A stretch of DNA of 63,482 nucleotides, the filler included, from Stramenopiles sp. TOSAG23-6 (taxonomy: Eukaryota), in assembly GCA_900128565.1 (NCBI GenBank). It is 7 parts of 7 records of this genome, joined end to end, with 100 filler letters (N's around TTAATTAATTAA, not from the genome) between each part and the next. Parts side by side here need not be neighbours in the genome. Positions count along the whole stretch, not along the records: positions 1 to 10,283 come from LT636323.1; 6 more parts are not named here. One strand, written 5' to 3'. Under the pieces are notes generated by a model, which saw only the letters and a program-made list of their open reading frames with translations, made no database searches and had not been told where the DNA came from. Below, one piece after another: positions 2,215-62,111 of this stretch. The translations under genes and the position numbers were made by a program. How positions within the stretch are numbered: position 1 is the first letter of the stretch; every line of letters starts with the position of its first letter.

Positions 2215-5200
2215 CTATCTTCTGAAATATCTACGTATGCATATTAAAAGAGATATAGCAAAAAGACATTGGACAAGCATCATCAAAAATAAACTTTCGT
2301 CAACCTTAAGTTTTACTCCGTTGTTTCCACTACTACTACCTAATGGAATGGTATGTATTTTGGAAAAATATTTCAAAAAAAAAACTAAAATTTGTTAGGT
2401 ACAAATTTTCGTACGAAAAAGAATCGAATTTGAAAAAAAATAAAACATACATCATACTGTTTCTCTTTTACATTACTTTGATGATTGAAGGATGAGATCA
2501 ATTCATCATTACTATTCGAATTATACTGAGAATTACTCCACCAAACTGACCTTTCTTGTGAACTGTACTGATCAATAATTGATTGGTCGTTTTGAACATT
2601 TTTCAAAACATGAGAAGGATTTTCCACCAAATTTACCAAAATGTTTGCTAAATTTGTCATATATATACTTAGATGTATTCTCAATATAGTTAGATATATT
2701 GGAATCTTTTGTAAGAAATCACTTGTCATTTTCGCAGAATGCTCATTTTGTTTCTCTGTTTGTTCAAGGGAACGATACAATAATACAAGCGCATTTTCTG
2801 GAGATTCCGCTAATCCCCCTTGACCATTTTCATGCATTAATGCTAAATTGAATGTGCCTTGGGGGTCGCCTAAAGAGCTTGCTGTATTATAGAATTTGGC
2901 TGCGAGATTATGATTGATTTTACCATCACTTGGGCCTTGTTGCCAACTATGTCCCATCATATGTTTACGACCATAAAATGCCGCATTTCCTAACCAGAGA
3001 GCAGCCTCTGGACTGCCACCAAGATGTACTGTGAAGAAATATGTTTAGAAAAAAAATGTTAGGTACGGAATTTGGTATGAAATATGAACCAAATTGATTG
3101 TAAAAGCGTACATTAGATTGTTCATAATGATGTTCCGCTATAGCAGGTGCATTAAGCTTCTCATCGAATATATATGCAGCATTGTTCAAACCTGTTTCGT
3201 ATCCCATTTCTCCGCCTTCTACAAATCGTATCACTGCACCTGTGTAGTCTTTTGCAAGAAAACGATTAAATCCTCTTCGGATAACGCCTCCCCATTCTCC
3301 ACCTTCTGCCGCTGCACGAAGATACGCAACAGCTAAATGGCAGTTTCTATCGGCTCCTTTACCTCGTAGATGAACGTCCTTGCCTAATGTATATATACTA
3401 TTGAAATGGCCAAACCGAGAAGCAGCCTGTTCAAAAAAGTAACGCGCTCGGGTATAATTTCGAGGAGTTCCATTGCCTTCAAAATGCATTGTACCTGCAT
3501 TGAAAAATGAATCAGCATTTCCTCCAGCCTTGGCTGCACGCTCAAAATATTCCAGGGCAAGGGTCTTATTTTCTGGTACACCTTGTCCATTGAAATGACA
3601 GTAGCCTAATCCATTCATCGCACCCCAATCATTTTGCTTCGCTGCTTTCTTATAGAGTTCGACAGCTTTCGTCGCATTGTGAGCGACTCCTTCTCCTCTA
3701 ATTAAACAATTTGCAGCATTCATTTGTCCTTCGGCATCGCCAAGCTCAGCAGCGCGATTGAAATATTCATAAGCTCTGCGCTGATCTCTTGGCATTCCAC
3801 GTGCCCCAAAATAATATAACGCACCAGTTGCAATCATCGACGGTATGTGCCCTTGTTCTGCCCGAATCTGTTGGTATTGAATCATTGCGTCACTTTCACC
3901 TCGTTGACCTATCGCCACAAAGTTTTCTGATATCTTTGATAAACGAGGCATCTCATTCAATGGTTGGCGCCCTGTTGAATGGAATCTGTTGTATGATTCA
4001 GAAGCTACATGGGAATAATACATCAGTGCTGCTTCACATGCTCTATCTAAAGATGGTGAAAGACCATTAATCACAGATCCAGGAGGATGTATAGGTTTAC
4101 CATGATGACCATTTATATGTCGATAGGCCAATGATAACTTTGCTTCAAACGATCCCAGGACAGTTGCTACCATGAACATCCCAGTAACTTTTGCTTTCGA
4201 CAAAGCTAGATCTTTTGCATTTCGAATATCTCTTGTTGATGGAGCAATACGTGCAGATTGCCATACTGCTAACGAATATACTGCATCTGCATTACCACAG
4301 AGAGAAGCATCGCGCATTAAATTTTCCCCACGTATCATGTCCCTCGGAAAGTACAATACCTTAGATAATGAAGTTTCTTCGTCGCAAAAATATGTACCTG
4401 TGAAGAGTATACGACTATAAATAATCATTCCTTCCACTTCATGATAAGCAACACTTTCTTCTAATAAGTTCATTATTTCATGCATGTCAGCATTCTTACA
4501 TTTATTTAAAAGTTTTTTTGCATTCATTGCCCGAGAGGTAGAACCTTTTAAAGCTTCTTTCTTTGTTGTAATACTAGTATCTGTATCATTTTCTATAGTT
4601 AGCGCATTTATTTCATTATTATTTTCATGGGATTCATTATCATTTTCGAAACTCAAATCTTTCGTAAAATCTTCGAAAGTCTTACATTGATCACTTTCTT
4701 GAGTATTAAGAATAGTCTTCAACATTTTAGTTGCATAACCTTCTGCTGTATTATTATCCGATAAACTATACCTCCAATGAATACTATCACTTTTTGTGTT
4801 TTCATTTTCCTTTTCTTTATTCTCTCTACTTACAGTCTTAGCACTCATTCTAGAGACTGTTTCTATTTTAACCGCGGCTTCTTCTTCAATTTGCCAAATG
4901 TCTAATACCCCAGGAAATATTTTNAATCGTGAGATCAAACCTCGAAATCCAGGAAACCACGGATCACCACCAATGTACAGATTACCGTCATTAAAAAGGA
5001 CTTCATCATTAAGACTCATCGACACATCAAGAACACCATTTATATATAATGATACTGTAAAATTGTTTTCTGAAATAGTTGATGTATTGTGAAATTTGAA
5101 GGCTAAATGTGTCCATTTCTTCAAAGGAATAAAACTCTGACTCTCACCACCCACATCTTGATGTTGTACAGTGCTTACTTTCATTGTGATGCGCGAAGAG

Positions 5201-5758: not shown

Positions 5759-5857
5759 ATGTATTACGAAAAAATATTTCAAAAAAAAAAAAAAATTGTT
5801 AGGTACAAAATTTCGTATGAAAAAATATTCATCCCGAAAATCATGATGAAAACGTAC
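5759..5857 (-). other. Family intron GT-AT at the Sec24/SEL1 junction
   Basis: CAT|GTACGTTTT...GTAATACAT|GGG. Confidence 0.65.
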
Positions 5858-7276
5858 ATGGAACAGTATTTGAGAAACCGCAAATGTTACATTTCCAACG
5901 TCGTCCATTTATTGTAGGAAAATATTCGATATAGTACAAATCTGTTAGGTATGAAAAAAAAAATGAATTAAAAAAAAAAAAAAAAAAAATTCAATTTTGT
6001 TTTGTTAGGTACAAAATTTACTATGAAAAAAAAATAGTACGTACATGGTCTTGAAAGGTTACAAATGGATTTATATAAGCCCTACAACGTTCACATCGCA
6101 CAACTCCACAAGCACCAAAATTGACTACAGGTATTTTTTCATTTTCTTTAGCGGGTGCAAGTGGTCGTATGATACATCCTAATGGCATTTGTGATGCTTT
6201 TGCCATTTGAGCTGATTTTGGGAAAACTTTTGTTGAAAGTCTCCTATAATTTTTAAAAATATTTCAAAATTTTTGATTTTTTATTAGGTACANTNAGTAT
6301 GAAGCAAAATAACATTGAAGTGATCTATGTCATAGAAATCATAGAAATAGACACGAGANACAATTGAAGGATATACTCAACACCCAATAAGTAATACTCA
6401 AAGTCTTTAAAAAAAAATAAATACATTATTATTGACAACTTACATGTACCTCTCATCACATTGAAATTCTTCTTCAATTTGTACCGCATGTTGCTGAACA
6501 GCTGCTTGACCAGGAGCACGACCATGTGTGTTAGGGTACCTACCTGGTTGACCTGGTCTCATGTGTTGCATATGATTCGGTGGTGGTCTGCCATGCATNG
6601 NACCACCNGGTGGAGGATGGGAACCAGGTGGAGGTTGGGAACCAACAGAGTTCATAGGAGGAGCCGGTCTTCCTCCACCCATCATATTATTCATCATAGC
6701 ACTTGGGGGACCACGCCCTCCCATTGGAGAAGGCATAGTATGACTCATTGATGGTGGCGGTGGAGCCATTTGTCCCGACGTTGTTGGTGGAGCTCCGTTC
6801 ATTGAACGAGGAGGTGGTCCTCTTGGAGGGCCAGACATCATTGTTCCAGTCGGTGGTCCTCCCATCATTGATCCAGTTGGTGGTGCACCTACACTCGATG
6901 TTGGTNGTGGTGCTCCTCCCCCCATTGAGTACTGATTATTTGGTGGAACAACTGCAGTATTTGAAAAAGCATGATTAAACGGGTTCGCCTGAGCAGGTGG
7001 TACCTGGGGCTGAGAAACATTTGGCACTCCATATTGTCCNGGAGCAGGTGGTCTACCCATTTGACTGGGGGGAGCATTAAAAGCAGGTGGTGCACCAAAA
7101 GACGTTCGAGGGACAGTTCCCATTGGTGGAGGCATATGCGACATACCAGGAGGACCTGGAGGAATTCCTCGTGGGACCCCCCCCATCATTGGCATTGCTG
7201 GTTTGTTAGCTCCAGGAGCTGATGGTGCACTCCGTGCACTATAGGAAGGAATATTTGGAGGAGGAGCCCCGTACAT
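5858..7276 (-). CDS. SEC24: COPII coat protein Sec24, 5' part only (Pro-rich N-terminus + zinc finger)
   Basis: Spliced: CDERYM|RLSTKVFP...PLGCIIRPLA...VVRCERCRAYINPFVTFQDH|GRRWKCNICGFSNTVP. Introns 6244-6443 and 5907-6044. The rest of the gene is absent. Confidence 0.88.
5907..6044 (-). other. Family intron GT-AT
   Basis: Restores the Sec24 zinc finger QDH|GRRWKCNIC. Confidence 0.85.
6244..6443 (-). other. GT-AG intron carrying the family 3' motif
   Basis: AT|GTAAGT...GTACCTAAT...TATAG|G; RYM|RLST. Confidence 0.85.
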
Positions 7277-10283: not shown

Positions 10284-10383
10284 NNNNNNNNNNNNNNNNN
10301 NNNNNNNNNNNNNNNNNNNNNNNNNNNTTAATTAATTAANNNNNNNNNNNNNNNNNNNNNNNNNNNNNNNNNNNNNNNNNNNN
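10284..10383. other. Artificial contig linker (N-TTAATTAATTAA-N); identical linkers at 20645-20744, 31004-31103, 41351-41450, 51693-51792, 62012-62111
   Basis: 100-nt N blocks with a six-frame stop cassette. Contig lengths decrease monotonically (10261, 10259, 10247, 10242, 10219). Confidence 0.97.
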
Positions 10384-10500
10384 TTTCNTCNTGATTTTNA
10401 GATTTTTTTTTTATAGAAAATTTTGTACCTAAACAAAAAAGTTTTTTTTTTACGATGAAAATTTTGTACCTGACAATTTTTTTTGAAATATTTTTCACAG

Positions 10501-40888: not shown

Positions 40889-41450
40889 TGAAGTATGTGT
40901 TTCTTGTATAATGAACCAGTAAAGATAGAAGATATTGTAAGAGTGGTTAGTCGGCCATTCATGTAAATTCATGTTGGAATTTACTTTTTGACCACTTCGA
41001 TTTTCAGGCGTATATTTCGTGTTGTGTTCGCGTGTCAGTCAACTCAACGGCAGTTACAAAGACATTACACAGTAATAGTATCACCGTTCGTCTGTATTTT
41101 AACAAAAACCACCGGTGATCATTTCACTGCCACAAAACATGTGGTTATTATTCATAAGTATTATAGTTTTAGTATATACCACTGATTCAGCAATGACAAA
41201 TTCGCCTCCAGATAAATATAAATCCTGGACAGATATTCTCGAGCTATCAGATCGAAAAATGAATTGTACAAGCTTGGCAGATTTAGTGTCCAAGTCAGGT
41301 GACTGGTTAAATTTCCCTCTATTTCAAACAGAATATGATGCACTAACAAANNNNNNNNNNNNNNNNNNNNNNNNNNNNNNNNNNNNNNNNNNNNTTAATT
41401 AATTAANNNNNNNNNNNNNNNNNNNNNNNNNNNNNNNNNNNNNNNNNNNN

Positions 41451-51692: not shown

Positions 51693-51796
51693 NNNNNNNN
51701 NNNNNNNNNNNNNNNNNNNNNNNNNNNNNNNNNNNNTTAATTAATTAANNNNNNNNNNNNNNNNNNNNNNNNNNNNNNNNNNNNNNNNNNNNAAAA

Positions 51797-51925: not shown

Positions 51926-53521
51926 ACATTCTAGGAAATGATTACAACGCGTAAACACACCTTGCCACGTGTCATCTTCCCAAAAGAAATCTGGAATGTC
52001 TAATAACATGCTGTGTAAATTCACAGCAGATTGAAGAACGAATAATCTGCCAATTTCTTTGCAAATTGTCTCTTCTTCTACCTTTACTTTTAGGAAAATA
52101 TTAAAATATTTTTTCTTAGGTACAAATTTTTTTTACGAAAAAAAAAAATTTTTACGAAAAAAAAATGATAAAATGAAAAATGGTTAGGGTTAGGGTTGAA
52201 AACGTACATGTAAACTTCCATCATCAGCCATTAATCGAGGAAAATGTTTGGAATGTTCGATGGCCTCATCAGCACGAAATTCAAATGTTGATAACAACAC
52301 GGATTGTGAAAAAGTATTTCAAAAACAAAATCGTTAGGTACAAAATTTCGTATAAAAAAAATAAATTCGAAATTGAAATGAAAACGTACACGGATTGTGC
52401 AAATGCAAATGAAACTGCCAATTTTTCCTCAGGGCTGGTTGTTGANAAAACAACTTCGTCTCTTTTGATNCCGGATTTAATACCAAATTTGAAAATCATG
52501 TATAGTAAAAAATAAATCTTCAATTTGAAATTGGTCAGAAAAAAATCGTTATGTACAAAATTTTCATAGTAAAAAATAAATCATTATGAAAAACANACAT
52601 GTCATCAGACTCAATTTCTTTGAGGGATTCCGTTTCAAGTCCATTTTTCCGNATAGATTTCAACAAAGATGTATTGGAAAAAAATATTTTTGTATTTTGT
52701 TAGGTATGAAATTTCGTACCAAAAAAAAATTGATAAAAAATTGAAAAAAAATTAGACATTAGGGTTAGGGTATTCTATTTAGAAAACCTACAGAGTTCAG
52801 CTTCCTTTGTTAATCCCCAAAATACAACACAACCAAAGGAAAATATAAAAATATTCGCTGATTTGATAAGCTTTTCTTCTATATAATGACTACTGGGAAA
52901 GCGAATATACGTGAATAAATATTTCAAAAATTTATTTTCGTTAGGTACGAAATTTCATGGTAAAAAAATAAATTGAAAATTCATGATGAAAAAAAAAACA
53001 TACATGTTTTNTGTTGACGAAGTTTCTTTTTTGGTTGCTTCATCCAATGTATCTACACCCGAATCAGATGCACTGGCATCAGATCGTTGATTTACCAAAG
53101 TACTGTGAAGCTTTTGTGCTTCCAAAATATCAGCTTTGTATGTTTTGGGGAATACGTGTAACTCCTCCATATACATAAAAGAACCCCATTGAGGACCTAA
53201 ACCGTCTATTCTATTAATTANACTTTTCATTTTCTCAGTATCTATTGTTTTACATGTACAATATGCAGAAATTACACCTTTTGGAGCTTGGCCATGACGT
53301 GGATGGTACTTACGGATACGTCGCTTGGATTTTCGGAAACTATATTTAGGGTCTAGTTCCCGTGGAAATCCAATTGGGTTAATTGAGCTATAGCTAGGAT
53401 TGGATTGACGATACGTTTTTAACTCTGCGCCTTTGTTCCTTGTTAAGCCCATTAACTCCGAGTTAGTTGCAGTCACTTTCTTAGCAAACCATCCGGGTTT
53501 ATTCGATGATTTAGGTAACAT
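51926..53521 (-). CDS. DUF155/RMD1-family protein, 3' incomplete
   Basis: ISAYCTC, IFIFSFGCVVFWGLT, DDM, EEKLAVSFAFAQSV|LLSTFE, IGRLF...VNLHS.LLDIPDFFWE after removing five introns. Confidence 0.87.
52082..53003 (-). other. Five family introns: 52905-53003 (AT), 52669-52791 (AT), 52498-52598 (AT), 52299-52389 (GT), 52082-52207 (AG); a sixth starts at 51925
   Basis: Excision restores the DUF155 motifs in one frame. Confidence 0.82.
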
Positions 53522-53681
53522 TTTTNGAATCGTTGACCAGTTTTTACTGTAGTGTTCTACCTTCAAATAAAAGAAGATTTTGATAGCCAATGCCAATAGT
53601 ATAAACCCTAACCCTAATCGTAATGTAACTTTTTGTATTGATTTTTATGTTGTTCTGTATTAGTTTACCAGTTCGAGTTAA

Positions 53682-54947: not shown

Positions 54948-56238
54948 ATGTCAAAGTCATTCGCAGAATGCATTCTTAATGGTGAAGCTGAAGCCGTATC
55001 TGAAATCCTCAAGAAANCTGANTCGCCAGCGCAGTTTTCTGCCAAAAAAATTAATAATNGTTTAACACACTTTCATCTGGCGTGTATGTCAGGACATAAA
55101 AATATTGTTGACATCATATTAAAAGCTGCAGGTTCGGGTATTCTTATGGAACAAGATGCACTGCAACGTTTCCCAGTATTTTGTGCGATTGAAAAGGGAC
55201 AAATAGAAGTATCGAAATTACTCATTGAAAAACTTGATGAAAAGAATTGGACTTCAAAAATGCTCATGAGACTTGATAGCCGTGGGTTTAACTGCATTCA
55301 TCTCGCAGCAAGATGTGGCGACTCAAAAACATCGGAATCACTTCTCAGAATTGTTCTCCCATATGCAACTACTGCACAAGATATATATACTCGTAGCTCA
55401 AGTGGACTTTCCTCATTAGACTTTGCTGCAGCGACTGGTGCAGCGGTTTCAGTGAAACTACTGCTAGATAGACTTTTCAAAATATTAACTACAAATAGTG
55501 AGAACTCTTCAAAAAATATAGTTATTGATGAAACGTTTTTGGAATTTACAAATACTGCTCTATTGTTAGCTTGCAAAGAAGGTCATAAAGATGCAGCTAT
55601 TAATCTTGTTGCTGGTGGTGCTAATGTAGATATTATTGGTCCGGATGGCATGTATGTTTTAATTTTTTTTCAACTTCGTTTTTTTTTTCGTACGAAATTT
55701 TGTACCTAACGATTTTTTTTTGAAATATTTGAGTGTCGCGCATTGGGCCTTTTCGCTAGGACACGAGAGCTTAGGCATTTGGTTACTCAAAAAGAGTTCT
55801 AATCCAAGTATTCTCAATAAAGATGGTAAAACAGCAAATGAGTGTTTACCACCACCAATTCCATTAGTAAATGATTCTAGTTTGATTAAACAGAAAGTGA
55901 AAATGTCAATTGCTCCGCCAAGTTTAACAGCTACACAAAAAGATAAAATTTTCAAAGAAATTCAAATTGTACAAGAAAATGACAAATCATGGTTAGAGAG
56001 TGCTTCAGGTAAAAAGTTGAGACAGTTAATTAGTTCCTTTGTTGGCTTAGTTTTAGAAAAGCAGCCAAACAACGTACATTTTCATTATGAATTTTTTACC
56101 GAATGTTTTTTTTCATGCGAAATTTTATACCTAACAATTTATTTTTGAGTGTTTTTGTTTTTCACAATATAGGATAATGAAATAGAAAAAATTGCGATTG
56201 ATTTTTTTGTGAAAAATCGGGGGAAATCGACAACTTGA
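54948..56238 (+). CDS. Ankyrin-repeat protein with C-terminal RIIa/Dpy-30-like segment
   Basis: THFHLACMSGH, NCIHLAAR, TALLLACKEGH; VLEKQPNN|DNEIEKIAIDFF. Introns 55652-55730 and 56074-56172. Confidence 0.8.
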
Positions 56239-56899
56239 ATTTGAAATGCACATTGAAATGCACATTGAAATGCACATTGAAATGCACATTGAAATGAACA
56301 TTGAATTGAAGATAAATCAAAATATATTTTTTATTGTATTTTTACAACGTTTCCTTTTGTTTTTTTAGATATTGCTGAGTGTATCGATGAAATTATTGTT
56401 TCTTTTTGAGATGGGCTGCATAACTTGTCAAGTTTTCCCTGTAATAGTGTACTAATTTCTTTGGTAACTACACTCTCTATTTCTTTCTCAGATAATGTTG
56501 AACAATTATTTTGTTCGTTTATAGAATTGATTATAGTATCATTACTTTCAGTAGAACTTTTAGAAGTTGTAAAATGCCGAGGAGAAAAAATTGGAGAAAT
56601 TTCCTTATTATCATTGTCAAATTCAAGAGCTAGAATGAATTCTAAATAATCAAAGTCAAATGTATTATCATTATAACCTCCATACTTTTCATGATTAATA
56701 AAATACGCGAATAATTCTGCATACTCTTCAAACGTTCCCCGAATTTGGAGCGCTCTCATTCCCATTTCAAATGTCGGAGGATTAATTTCCCCTCCACGAT
56801 GAATGTATTTAGAAAAAATATTTTATATTCAATTTGTTTGTTAGGTACAAAATTCCGTACGAAAAAAAAATAAATTTGAAATTAATTTTGAAAACGTAC
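55652..56899. other. Family introns 55652-55730 (+, ends TT, 3' block missing), 56074-56172 (+, AG), 56803-56899 (-, AT)
   Basis: In-frame joins PDGM|SVAHW, QPNN|DNEI, PLGI|HRGG. Confidence 0.72.
56241..56306. repeat. 12-bp tandem repeat TTGAAATGCACA x~5
   Basis: Directly visible, immediately after the ankyrin gene stop codon. Confidence 0.85.
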
Positions 56900-61958: not shown

Positions 61959-62111
61959 GTACGTTTTATTTTTTTTCAAATTCGATTTTTTTTTCGTACG
62001 AAATTTTGTACNNNNNNNNNNNNNNNNNNNNNNNNNNNNNNNNNNNNNNNNNNNNTTAATTAATTAANNNNNNNNNNNNNNNNNNNNNNNNNNNNNNNNN
62101 NNNNNNNNNNN

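Follow-up and report, generated by a model that had tools for sequence, protein, structure and literature searches.

Repeated, introner-like introns with predicted non-AG 3′ ends in a marine stramenopile genome

The window analysed here is a stretch of 63,482 nucleotides (nt), filler included, assembled from contigs of Stramenopiles sp. TOSAG23-6 (GCA_900128565.1), and our subject is a 98-nt element at positions 2353-2450 on its minus strand. An initial annotation had described it as an intron whose ends form inverted repeats around an internal palindrome, in the manner of a miniature inverted-repeat transposable element (MITE) or an introner. The explanation that we favour, with middling confidence, is that the element is a member of a family of introner-like, spliceosomal-type introns of this marine stramenopile. 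Each copy brings its own GTAYGT donor, a branch-site block (..TTTTGTACCTAAC), a U-run and a tail of ~10 nt (CAMAATACAT), and the piece whose removal restores both reading frame and protein begins at the G of GTAYG and stops with the T of ..(C)AT, so the 3′ end is mostly YAU. YAU terminates most copies and YAG, CGU or UAC a few, in effect a YAG signal whose last base is relaxed. Reading frames and homology give good support to the family and to its non-AG borders.

The copy under study runs from GTATGT to AAAATACAT and lies in a gene with Pfam matches to Sel1 repeats, where its borders join open reading frames (ORFs) of 198 and 45 codons in frame. Alignment with other copies marks a 5′ splice-site-like GTATGT at 2445-2450; a branch-site-like TACCTAAC at 2394-2401 is part of TACGAAATTTTGTACCTAAC, the best-kept block of the family; and the 3′ terminus AAAATACAT (2353-2361), all three on the minus strand, is complementary to the exonic AT plus GTAT at the 5′ end. 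The interval first assigned to the unit, 2353-2451, was one base too long: the unit is present, but position 2451 is the exonic T before GT. The inverted repeats around a palindrome were correctly seen in this copy, as its terminal arms (2351-2361 and 2442-2452) match over 9 nt with 89% complementarity and its internal palindrome TTTTCGTACGAAAA (2406-2419), which contains TTTCGTACGAAA and is centred on CGTACG, is perfect over 14 nt. An additional TTTCAAA/TTTGAAA inverted repeat is located at 2371-2377 and 2429-2435.

A profile built from 15 copies and run against the whole window returned 37 matches at E<0.001, corresponding to about 34 distinct introns, and the 16-mer AAATTTTGTACCTAAC occurs 26 times at no more than one mismatch, as compared to 0.01 expected occurrences and a count that none of 100 shuffles reached. 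Detailed counts rest on 24 curated and aligned copies. Family introns measure 88-260 nt, with the curated set at 88-130 nt and three further copies with the same ends at 138-260 nt. In summary form, the blocks are a 5′ GTAYGTTTT, the core TACGAAATTTTGTACCTAAC and a 3′ end ...GAAATATTTTTYCAMAATACAT; in the alignment of the 24 copies, they appear as (CAT)GTAYGTTTT, a T-run followed by C.TACGAAATTTTGTACCTAAC, and a T-run followed by.AAATATTTTTTCA.AATACAT. About 29 nt around the branch site and ~30 nt at the 3′ terminus are conserved, as is the length. Most copies start with GTAYGT; the G at +1 is invariant, and the dinucleotide is GT in 23 of 24 and GC in the copy at 19963-20075 (+). The TTTTGTACCTAAC block includes CTAAC, is followed by T-runs and places its branch-like motif 31-61 nt from the 3′ end; from this consensus, it is a candidate branch site. 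At the other border, 21 of the curated copies close with T, two with G and one with C, and 22 of the 24 lack AG at the 3′ end, having AT, GT or AC in its place. The initial observation of repeated introns with inverted-repeat ends and non-AG termini, usually T, is confirmed. The base before GT, previously counted as 30 T and 3 C in 33 cases, is T in 21 and C in 3 curated copies; ten further copies, all with T, bring the recount to 31 T and 3 C of 34. An all-vs-all comparison agrees with the initial description of the copies as diverged, giving a median pairwise identity of 0.70 and a maximum of 0.91. The host genes are of NhaB, Sec24-like, Sel1, LRR, EF-hand, ankyrin, Usp and hydrolase-like types.

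The borders were evaluated by a frame test, which asked if long flanking ORFs join when the intron is taken from the G of GTAYG to the T of ..ACAT. Among the curated copies, 19 fit GT...(C)AT, three are ambiguous with two frames open, one has no ORFs and one is a misfit; 15 of the 19 join their flanking ORFs in register 0 alone, and four do so after a border correction or when a tandem is taken as the unit. The copy at 3024-3111 (-) is instructive, as its tail CACAGTACAT holds an AG at -7/-6: cutting after this out-of-frame AG leaves 10 downstream codons after the 789 upstream, whereas cutting after the AT leaves 212. AGs in the same position, 5 nt before the end in use, are passed over both here and in the copy at 18528-18624 (+), which ends in ACAGCACAT and separates 225 from 110 codons. 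Between the branch-like motif and the intron end, AG is somewhat rarer than in mononucleotide shuffles (9 occurrences vs 16.7, P = 0.006), yet eight non-AG copies have one there.

Homology places several junctions more precisely. Two window ORFs are identical to public EukProt models, one NhaB-type (GSMAST32.ASY1.ANO1.429.1, referred to as P0121) and one PIG-M (GSMAST32.ASY1.ANO1.430.1, P0001). P0121 (window 10504-12634, +) forces GT-AG borders onto its introns by placing the donor 4 nt inside GTAYGT and the acceptor at an AG in the next exon. We fetched 150 NhaB relatives and aligned 14 of them with P0121 and with a model that uses the family borders. Three junctions are gapless relative to the 14 homologs with the family borders only, and P0121 has deletions of 3, 2 and 1 residues at them. 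Specifically, removal of the intron GT...AACAT at 11897-11992 (+) yields LVLH-I-AEVGF across 11896/11993, matching LVLHMAEVGF in P0122, and P0121 is without two residues that include the conserved AE; removal of 12149-12244 (+), an intron GTCCGT...CTATAC that is read as GT...AC, yields IIHDQELF across 12148/12245, matching MIHDQELF in P0122, and P0121 lacks one residue. The third junction belongs to a tandem intron, composed of a first copy at 11374-11461 (+) and a second, degenerate one at 11462-11556 (+). Here LRSL-I-MHSAVGT, which compares with LRSLLMH.AVGT in P0122, is obtained only if the intron ends with TTTCAT at 11556, as use of the AGs located 9 and 13 nt beyond it, one being the acceptor in P0121, costs three conserved residues. 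The GT-AG borders of the public NhaB model are thus ruled out by homology. In the Sec24-like gene, the exon before the 138-nt intron GT...AATAAAT at 5907-6044 (-) corresponds to PF04810 positions 2-19 and the exon after it to positions 21-36, and there is no AG within 40 nt of the 3′ end of this intron. Protein homology resolves four non-AG junctions to the codon, three in the NhaB-type gene and one inside a Sec23/24 zinc finger. A PDB sequence search with an NhaB exon returned no relative, and Pfam matches for four exons of the hydrolase gene were too weak for fixing junctions.

Where an exon ends with (C)AT, registers 0 to -3 yield an identical mRNA. The initial annotation had noted that the unit can also be read one base to the left, with TG..CA ends. 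This is an equivalent description wherever the T is shared, but the copies at 10905-11001 (+) in the NhaB-type gene and at 18898-18994 (+), which follows an exon ending ..CGC, share no base with the flanking exons and permit only GT...AT in register 0. The copy at 12149-12244 can be read as GT...AC, or as TC...CG when shifted by one base. An AT-AC reading (register -2) was rejected, as these three copies cannot take it and it puts the conserved GTAYGT out of register. Besides two of the 24 curated copies, family-type copies ending in AG are located at 20745-20792, 55652-55733 and, putatively, ~13942-~14126; judged by these ends, the splicing machinery seems to accept both YAG and YAU.

Several features point to descent from master copies and hence to an introner-like family. 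A subfamily, A, is defined by linked variants, with the 5′ GTATGTTTTATT accompanied by the 3′ TTTCCAAAA in 5 of 5 members and in 0 of 19 other copies (Fisher p = 2.4e-5). One tandem pair is present (11374/11462), and the branch module is doubled in the copies at 10384-10505, 21366-21495 and 5907-6044. Four of 12 main contig ends break within the family core, which indicates a repeat too numerous for the assembler. Finally, the window contains two conventional GT-AG introns without any family block, both after exon GG: one at 14375-14486 (-), in which GG precedes GTACGT, and one at 28630-28736 (-), which separates 78 from 464 codons. These show that the family blocks are not general splice requirements. 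Taken together, it is likely that the family arose by propagation. Searching metagenomes with the 16-mer core gave at least 118 loci, around which the family profile matched only weakly at the seeded word, and six loci that were examined are unrelated sequence; these matches therefore allow no statement on the distribution of the family.

We propose the following history for these introns. (C)AT sites within coding sequence would have served as insertion points for new copies. A fixed 2-bp target would be represented twice, once by the AT that closes the upstream exon and once by the AT that closes the intron, and the duplicated target would supply the 3′ splice site, as has been proposed for the Fritillaria and Micromonas introners. 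The short complementarity between AT-GTA.. and ..TAC-AT would then be a relic of inverted ends and of splice signals that is not needed for splicing, and the introns would be removed by a U2-type spliceosome tolerating U, and sometimes C, at the last position. The base counts are compatible with such a target: of 24 copies, 17 have A at exon position -2 and 21 have T at exon position -1, the corresponding intron positions being A in 22 and T in 21, position -3 is C in 11 of 24 exons and in 19 of 24 introns, and at the consensus level the exonic (C)AT before the intron repeats its 3′ (C)AT. The tandem copy is placed exactly at a junction of CAT and G. A fixed 2-bp AT target fits these data but is indistinguishable from a splice-signal preference. 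The proposal of a MITE or introner stands in part: a repeated and diverged family with non-AG ends, complementary termini and signs of propagation is present, but the transposon hallmarks are weak, the terminal complementarity amounting to 5+4 bp and existing at the consensus level only. Origin from a MITE that targeted a fixed AT is plausible and, like pairing in place of AG, unproven.

A number of observations weigh against the history proposed above. Splicing at the family borders is deduced from reading frames and homology only, and protein searches with the NhaB exons recovered P0121 and relatives of at most 61% identity, and no near-identical transcript-derived protein. The copy at 5759-5857 (-) does not fit the family borders, as its frame needs 97 or 100 nt, not 99; a short exon may be misassembled, or ..TAC may be the real end, as in the copy at 12149-12244, which itself stops at TAC, two bases short, and contains several N. 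The match between exon and intron at position -3 is close to the composition expectation in a manual count. No copy-specific target-site duplication was found in the 24 copies apart from one 10-nt case, and the summed match between exon ends and intron ends, 47 as compared to 38 in permutations, owes all of its excess to that copy (52299-52389). All copies are in sense orientation to their gene, a pattern expected equally from spread through RNA and from selection. No transposase-bearing partner with the same ends was seen in the 63 kb of the window. Lastly, with a median identity of 0.70 the copies are old, so insertion hallmarks may have decayed or may never have existed.

Two direct repeats deserve mention in their own right. 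In the exon before the minus-strand intron at 52299-52389, which ends CCGT, 10 nt (CACAATCCGT; 52299-52399) equal the intron end, the sole long direct repeat among the 24 copies and one that is unexplained. CTCTCG is present on both sides of the intron at 18898-18994 (18891-19000, +), where one exon ends CTCTCGC and the next starts CTCTCGA; this could be chance or a retained duplication.

Spread through RNA would dispense with a DNA transposon altogether. Introns would be reverse spliced into transcripts at sites of the form ..AT before any base, followed by reverse transcription and recombination, and the complementary ends would be a by-product of the splice signals. We consider this route unlikely, even though it accounts for several properties of the family: every curated copy with flanking ORFs is in sense orientation, the repeating unit is exactly the excised unit, copy-specific target-site duplications are lacking, the tandem copy sits at an existing exon-intron junction, and the exonic (C)AT mirrors the (C)AT of the intron end in the same way that CAG before GT mirrors the terminal CAG of ordinary introns. 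Selection within coding sequence likewise leaves sense-only copies, and reviews of introners, in the sections available to us, mostly favour DNA transposons (PMC11282704, PMC9860276).

A different account concerns how the 3′ splice site is set. The initial annotation had suggested that end pairing in the RNA replaces AG recognition, and in its explicit form the last five intron bases (UACAU) would pair with the last two exon bases plus GUA, holding the 5′ exon beside the 3′ junction and making AG unnecessary. In the proposed 9-bp helix, which joins exon AT + GTA..TTTT with AAAA..TAC + AT, 82.1% of cells are paired, as compared to 26-64% in slid registers, and the minimum-free-energy folds of nine of 16 single copies close the ends by this helix. 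Moreover, the altered tail of the copy at 52905-53003 gives eight consecutive pairs, the copies at 20259-20360 and 18528-18624, in which the exon and intron dinucleotides differ, still allow G-U pairs, and non-canonical introns with paired ends have been described in euglenids, diplonemids and Amoebophrya (PMC4770533, PMC12621601 and PMC7789003, each as far as the accessible text goes). Covariation is flat, however: shuffling partners leaves 81.7% of cells paired, the observed value is reached in 225 of 500 shuffles, and pairs that change on both sides number just two. The complementarity therefore belongs to the consensus, and compensatory changes are lacking. It overlaps with the pairing that a GTA donor and a YAG-like acceptor would produce in any case, and an ordinary YAG-like acceptor equally explains the pyrimidine at -3 and the A at -2. 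RNAalifold found no consensus structure in the family alignment, and the sixteen single folds are weak (-6.6 to -15.1 kcal/mol, z from -2.4 to +0.9). Seven of 24 copies are without the exonic AT, the copies at 10905-11001 and 18898-18994 cannot fully form the two exon pairs, and the second helix, TTTCAAA/TTTGAAA, is broken by an uncompensated G-to-C change in the copies at 18711-18821 and 20259-20360. Pairing as the determinant of the acceptor is doubtful, and covariation adds nothing to the initial suggestion. The internal palindrome has fared no better across the family: of 23 copies, 10 retain its C-G pair, four have U-G instead and nine cannot form it, with no compensatory change. Its left half varies freely, and neither the palindrome nor the neighbouring hairpin covaries; internal hairpins as a kept structure are rejected on this ground.

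A bolder version would hold that the second splicing step of this stramenopile no longer reads AG, the acceptor being set either by pairing of the last five intron bases with the 5′ exon-intron junction or by a dedicated factor that reads the ~10-nt tail after the U-run. We rate this as distinctly improbable. If it were true, any insertion with these ends would be spliced out precisely, and the element would be a self-contained, portable intron that could have colonised most genes.

It is very unlikely that the copies are ordinary old introns in which strict, genome-wide splice signals and T-rich filler mimic a family that never propagated. The best-kept blocks do map to the donor, the branch site and the 3′ region, and in this AT-rich sequence the median identity is only 0.70. 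The two GT-AG introns that do without the blocks, the linked variants of subfamily A, the ~29 and ~30 nt of conservation with kept length, the tandem and internally duplicated copies and the contigs broken inside the core all speak against this explanation, as does the presence of at least five copies in a single NhaB-type gene, the closest full-length relatives of which, at ~500 residues, are similar to bacterial NhaB. Hardly credible is the remaining option, that the pieces are not spliced in this way at all (assembly or amplification artefacts, pseudogene insertions, removal at the DNA level) or are U12-type introns: the assembly is fragmentary with many N, but about 34 copies are in frame with intact flanking ORFs and four junctions restore conserved protein sequence exactly, and U12-type introns, which do tolerate varied 3′ dinucleotides, carry RTATCCTT at the 5′ site and place their branch motif 10-15 nt before the 3′ end, as compared to the GTAYGTTTT and 31-61 nt of the family.

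The introner-like family that we favour has further members throughout the window. On the plus strand, the second contig opens within an intron of which only the 3′ part (10384-10505), with a doubled branch module and a terminal CACAGTACAT, is present. An intron of a Usp-domain gene (13568-13667, +) ends in AG (..TACAG), and at ~13942-~14126 there is a putative longer intron, identified by sequence reading, that holds a family fragment and ends in CAG. A family fragment consisting of the branch block and T-run is observed at 14063-14160, the meeting point of two convergent genes, where the last codons of a minus-strand PAP2-like gene are the reverse complement of the fragment. Subfamily A includes the introns at 18711-18821 (+) and 20259-20360 (+, ending ACGT), both ambiguous in the frame test, as well as those at 22048-22151 (+) and 25798-25887 (-; 95/187 codons). 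An intron at 19147-19245 (+) ends in AATAAAT. At the border of two contigs, the 5′ part of one intron (20587-20644, +) is cut within the core by the contig end, and the 3′ part of another (20745-20792, +), ending ACAG, stands at the next contig start; the contig end at 61959-62011 (+) similarly cuts the core of an intron, leaving its 5′ part. The alpha/beta-hydrolase-like gene has a longer, 158-nt intron ending in CATTACAT (21115-21272, +), and the following plus-strand introns are one with two branch-like motifs (21366-21495), a putative, degenerate one read from the frame (21597-21754, GTTGTG...AATGTAT) that holds a telomere-like repeat, and a 260-nt variant with family ends (22212-22471). 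On the minus strand, a diverged intron at 26154-26260 ends in ATATAT (266/106 codons), the copy at 52669-52757, just after a CCCTAACCCTA motif, has no flanking ORFs and is possibly an intron of a 5′ untranslated region, that at 52905-53003 ends in GTATAT, and that at 56803-56899 interrupts an EF-hand gene (819/156 codons). Finally, a 3′-truncated copy of 82 nt (55652-55733, +) ends at an in-frame AG, and the intron at 56074-56172 (+) ends in AG (ATATAG).

The window is composed of separate contigs ordered by falling size (10283, 10261, 10259 ... bases) that are not genomic neighbours, joined by linkers of the form N44-TTAATTAATTAA-N44 at 10284-10383, 20645-20744, 31004-31103, 41351-41450, 51693-51792 and 62012-62111. 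Its GC content is ~0.33-0.35 in four contigs and 0.40-0.41 in two. The latter (31104-51692) are free of family introns and contain very long cysteine-rich ORFs (3036, 1703 and 942 codons); they may represent single-exon genes or DNA of other origin. Oomycetes, at 38-40% identity, are among the next-best relatives of the PIG-M protein, which places the organism in the stramenopiles, and the GSMAST32 label of the public models suggests a MAST-3 type. A telomere-like 11-mer, CCCTAACCCTA, is present seven times, at 20204, 21622, 27307, 52195 and 52770 (-) and at 53606 and 54805 (+), with several copies just 5′ of gene starts and some within family introns, and may be a promoter motif of the telo-box kind. 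An Rfam search of the window returned no family, and hence no small nuclear RNA gene.

If RNA data confirm the GT...AT borders, the family would be an instance of a stramenopile gaining introns on a large scale with an acceptor other than AG. Because a canonical donor and branch site are kept, it would isolate the choice of an AG-less 3′ site more cleanly than Fritillaria and Amoebophrya, in which both ends are odd. If other genes of this assembly have been modelled like P0121, with forced GT-AG borders and small deletions, comparative proteomes would be affected.

A full-text literature search found no description of such introns for marine stramenopiles or MAST-3-type assemblies, and the available portion of a paper on marine stramenopile single-cell genomes mentions introns in its methods only (PMC5778133). 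The closest parallels come from other lineages, known here from partial texts of the papers cited. In Fritillaria borealis, introns are preceded by an exonic TAC and end in AC, which was read as a target duplication that creates the acceptor (Henriet et al. 2019, via PMC11282704), and U2AF paralogs recognise odd 3′ ends (PMC13326754). The two systems are alike in that an exon motif repeats the intron 3′ end (TAC and ..AC there; (C)AT and ..(C)AT here), inverted ends are present, many lineage-specific introns of Fritillaria escape GT-AG, and removal by a U2-type spliceosome with relaxed acceptor choice has been proposed. They differ in that Fritillaria introns mostly start with AG and fall into many families, whereas the stramenopile introns form a single dominant family within the window and have a canonical GTAYGT, a strong branch block and a U-run. 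The introners of Micromonas pusilla, Aureococcus anophagefferens and the survey of Gozashti et al. 2022 are likewise short, similar introns in many unrelated genes of aquatic protists, in which the element carries one splice site and a target duplication can give the other (PMC11282704, PMC9860276). In contrast to the family described here, theirs are GY-AG introns, many families of which have clear terminal inverted repeats and target-site duplications of 3-9 bp, as compared to a non-AG acceptor, 5+4 bp of complementarity and no copy-specific target-site duplication.

Other non-canonical introns share the paired or repeated borders. The introners of Amoebophrya A25 and A120 have inverted repeats of 8-20 nt and direct repeats of 3-5 nt across their borders (PMC7789003). 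As in our family, inverted repeats are located at both ends, direct repeats at the borders blur the register and no transposase lies inside; unlike our family, in which GT is present in 23 of 24 copies together with a branch motif and a 3′ consensus, they are described, in the accessible parts of that report, as having no preferred terminal dinucleotides, in a lineage reported to be without U1. Nonconventional introns of euglenids and non-canonical introns of hemistasiid diplonemids also pair their ends (PMC4770533, PMC12621601), and the 'intermediate' introns of euglenids and those of diplonemids resemble the stramenopile introns in combining one canonical with one non-canonical border, pairable ends and direct repeats at the junctions (PMC4770533, PMC12621601, PMC11282704). 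Euglenid pairing, according to the available text, involves +4..+6 and -8..-6 in introns that have no polypyrimidine tract and are excised as circles (PMC4770533, PMC11282704), whereas the pairing positions here are exon -2..-1 and intron +1..+3 with -5..-1, a branch site and a U-run are present, and no stable structure is predicted. The stramenopile family thus departs from the known systems in that the canonical donor, the branch block and the U-run are all kept, and only the last base of the acceptor is changed.

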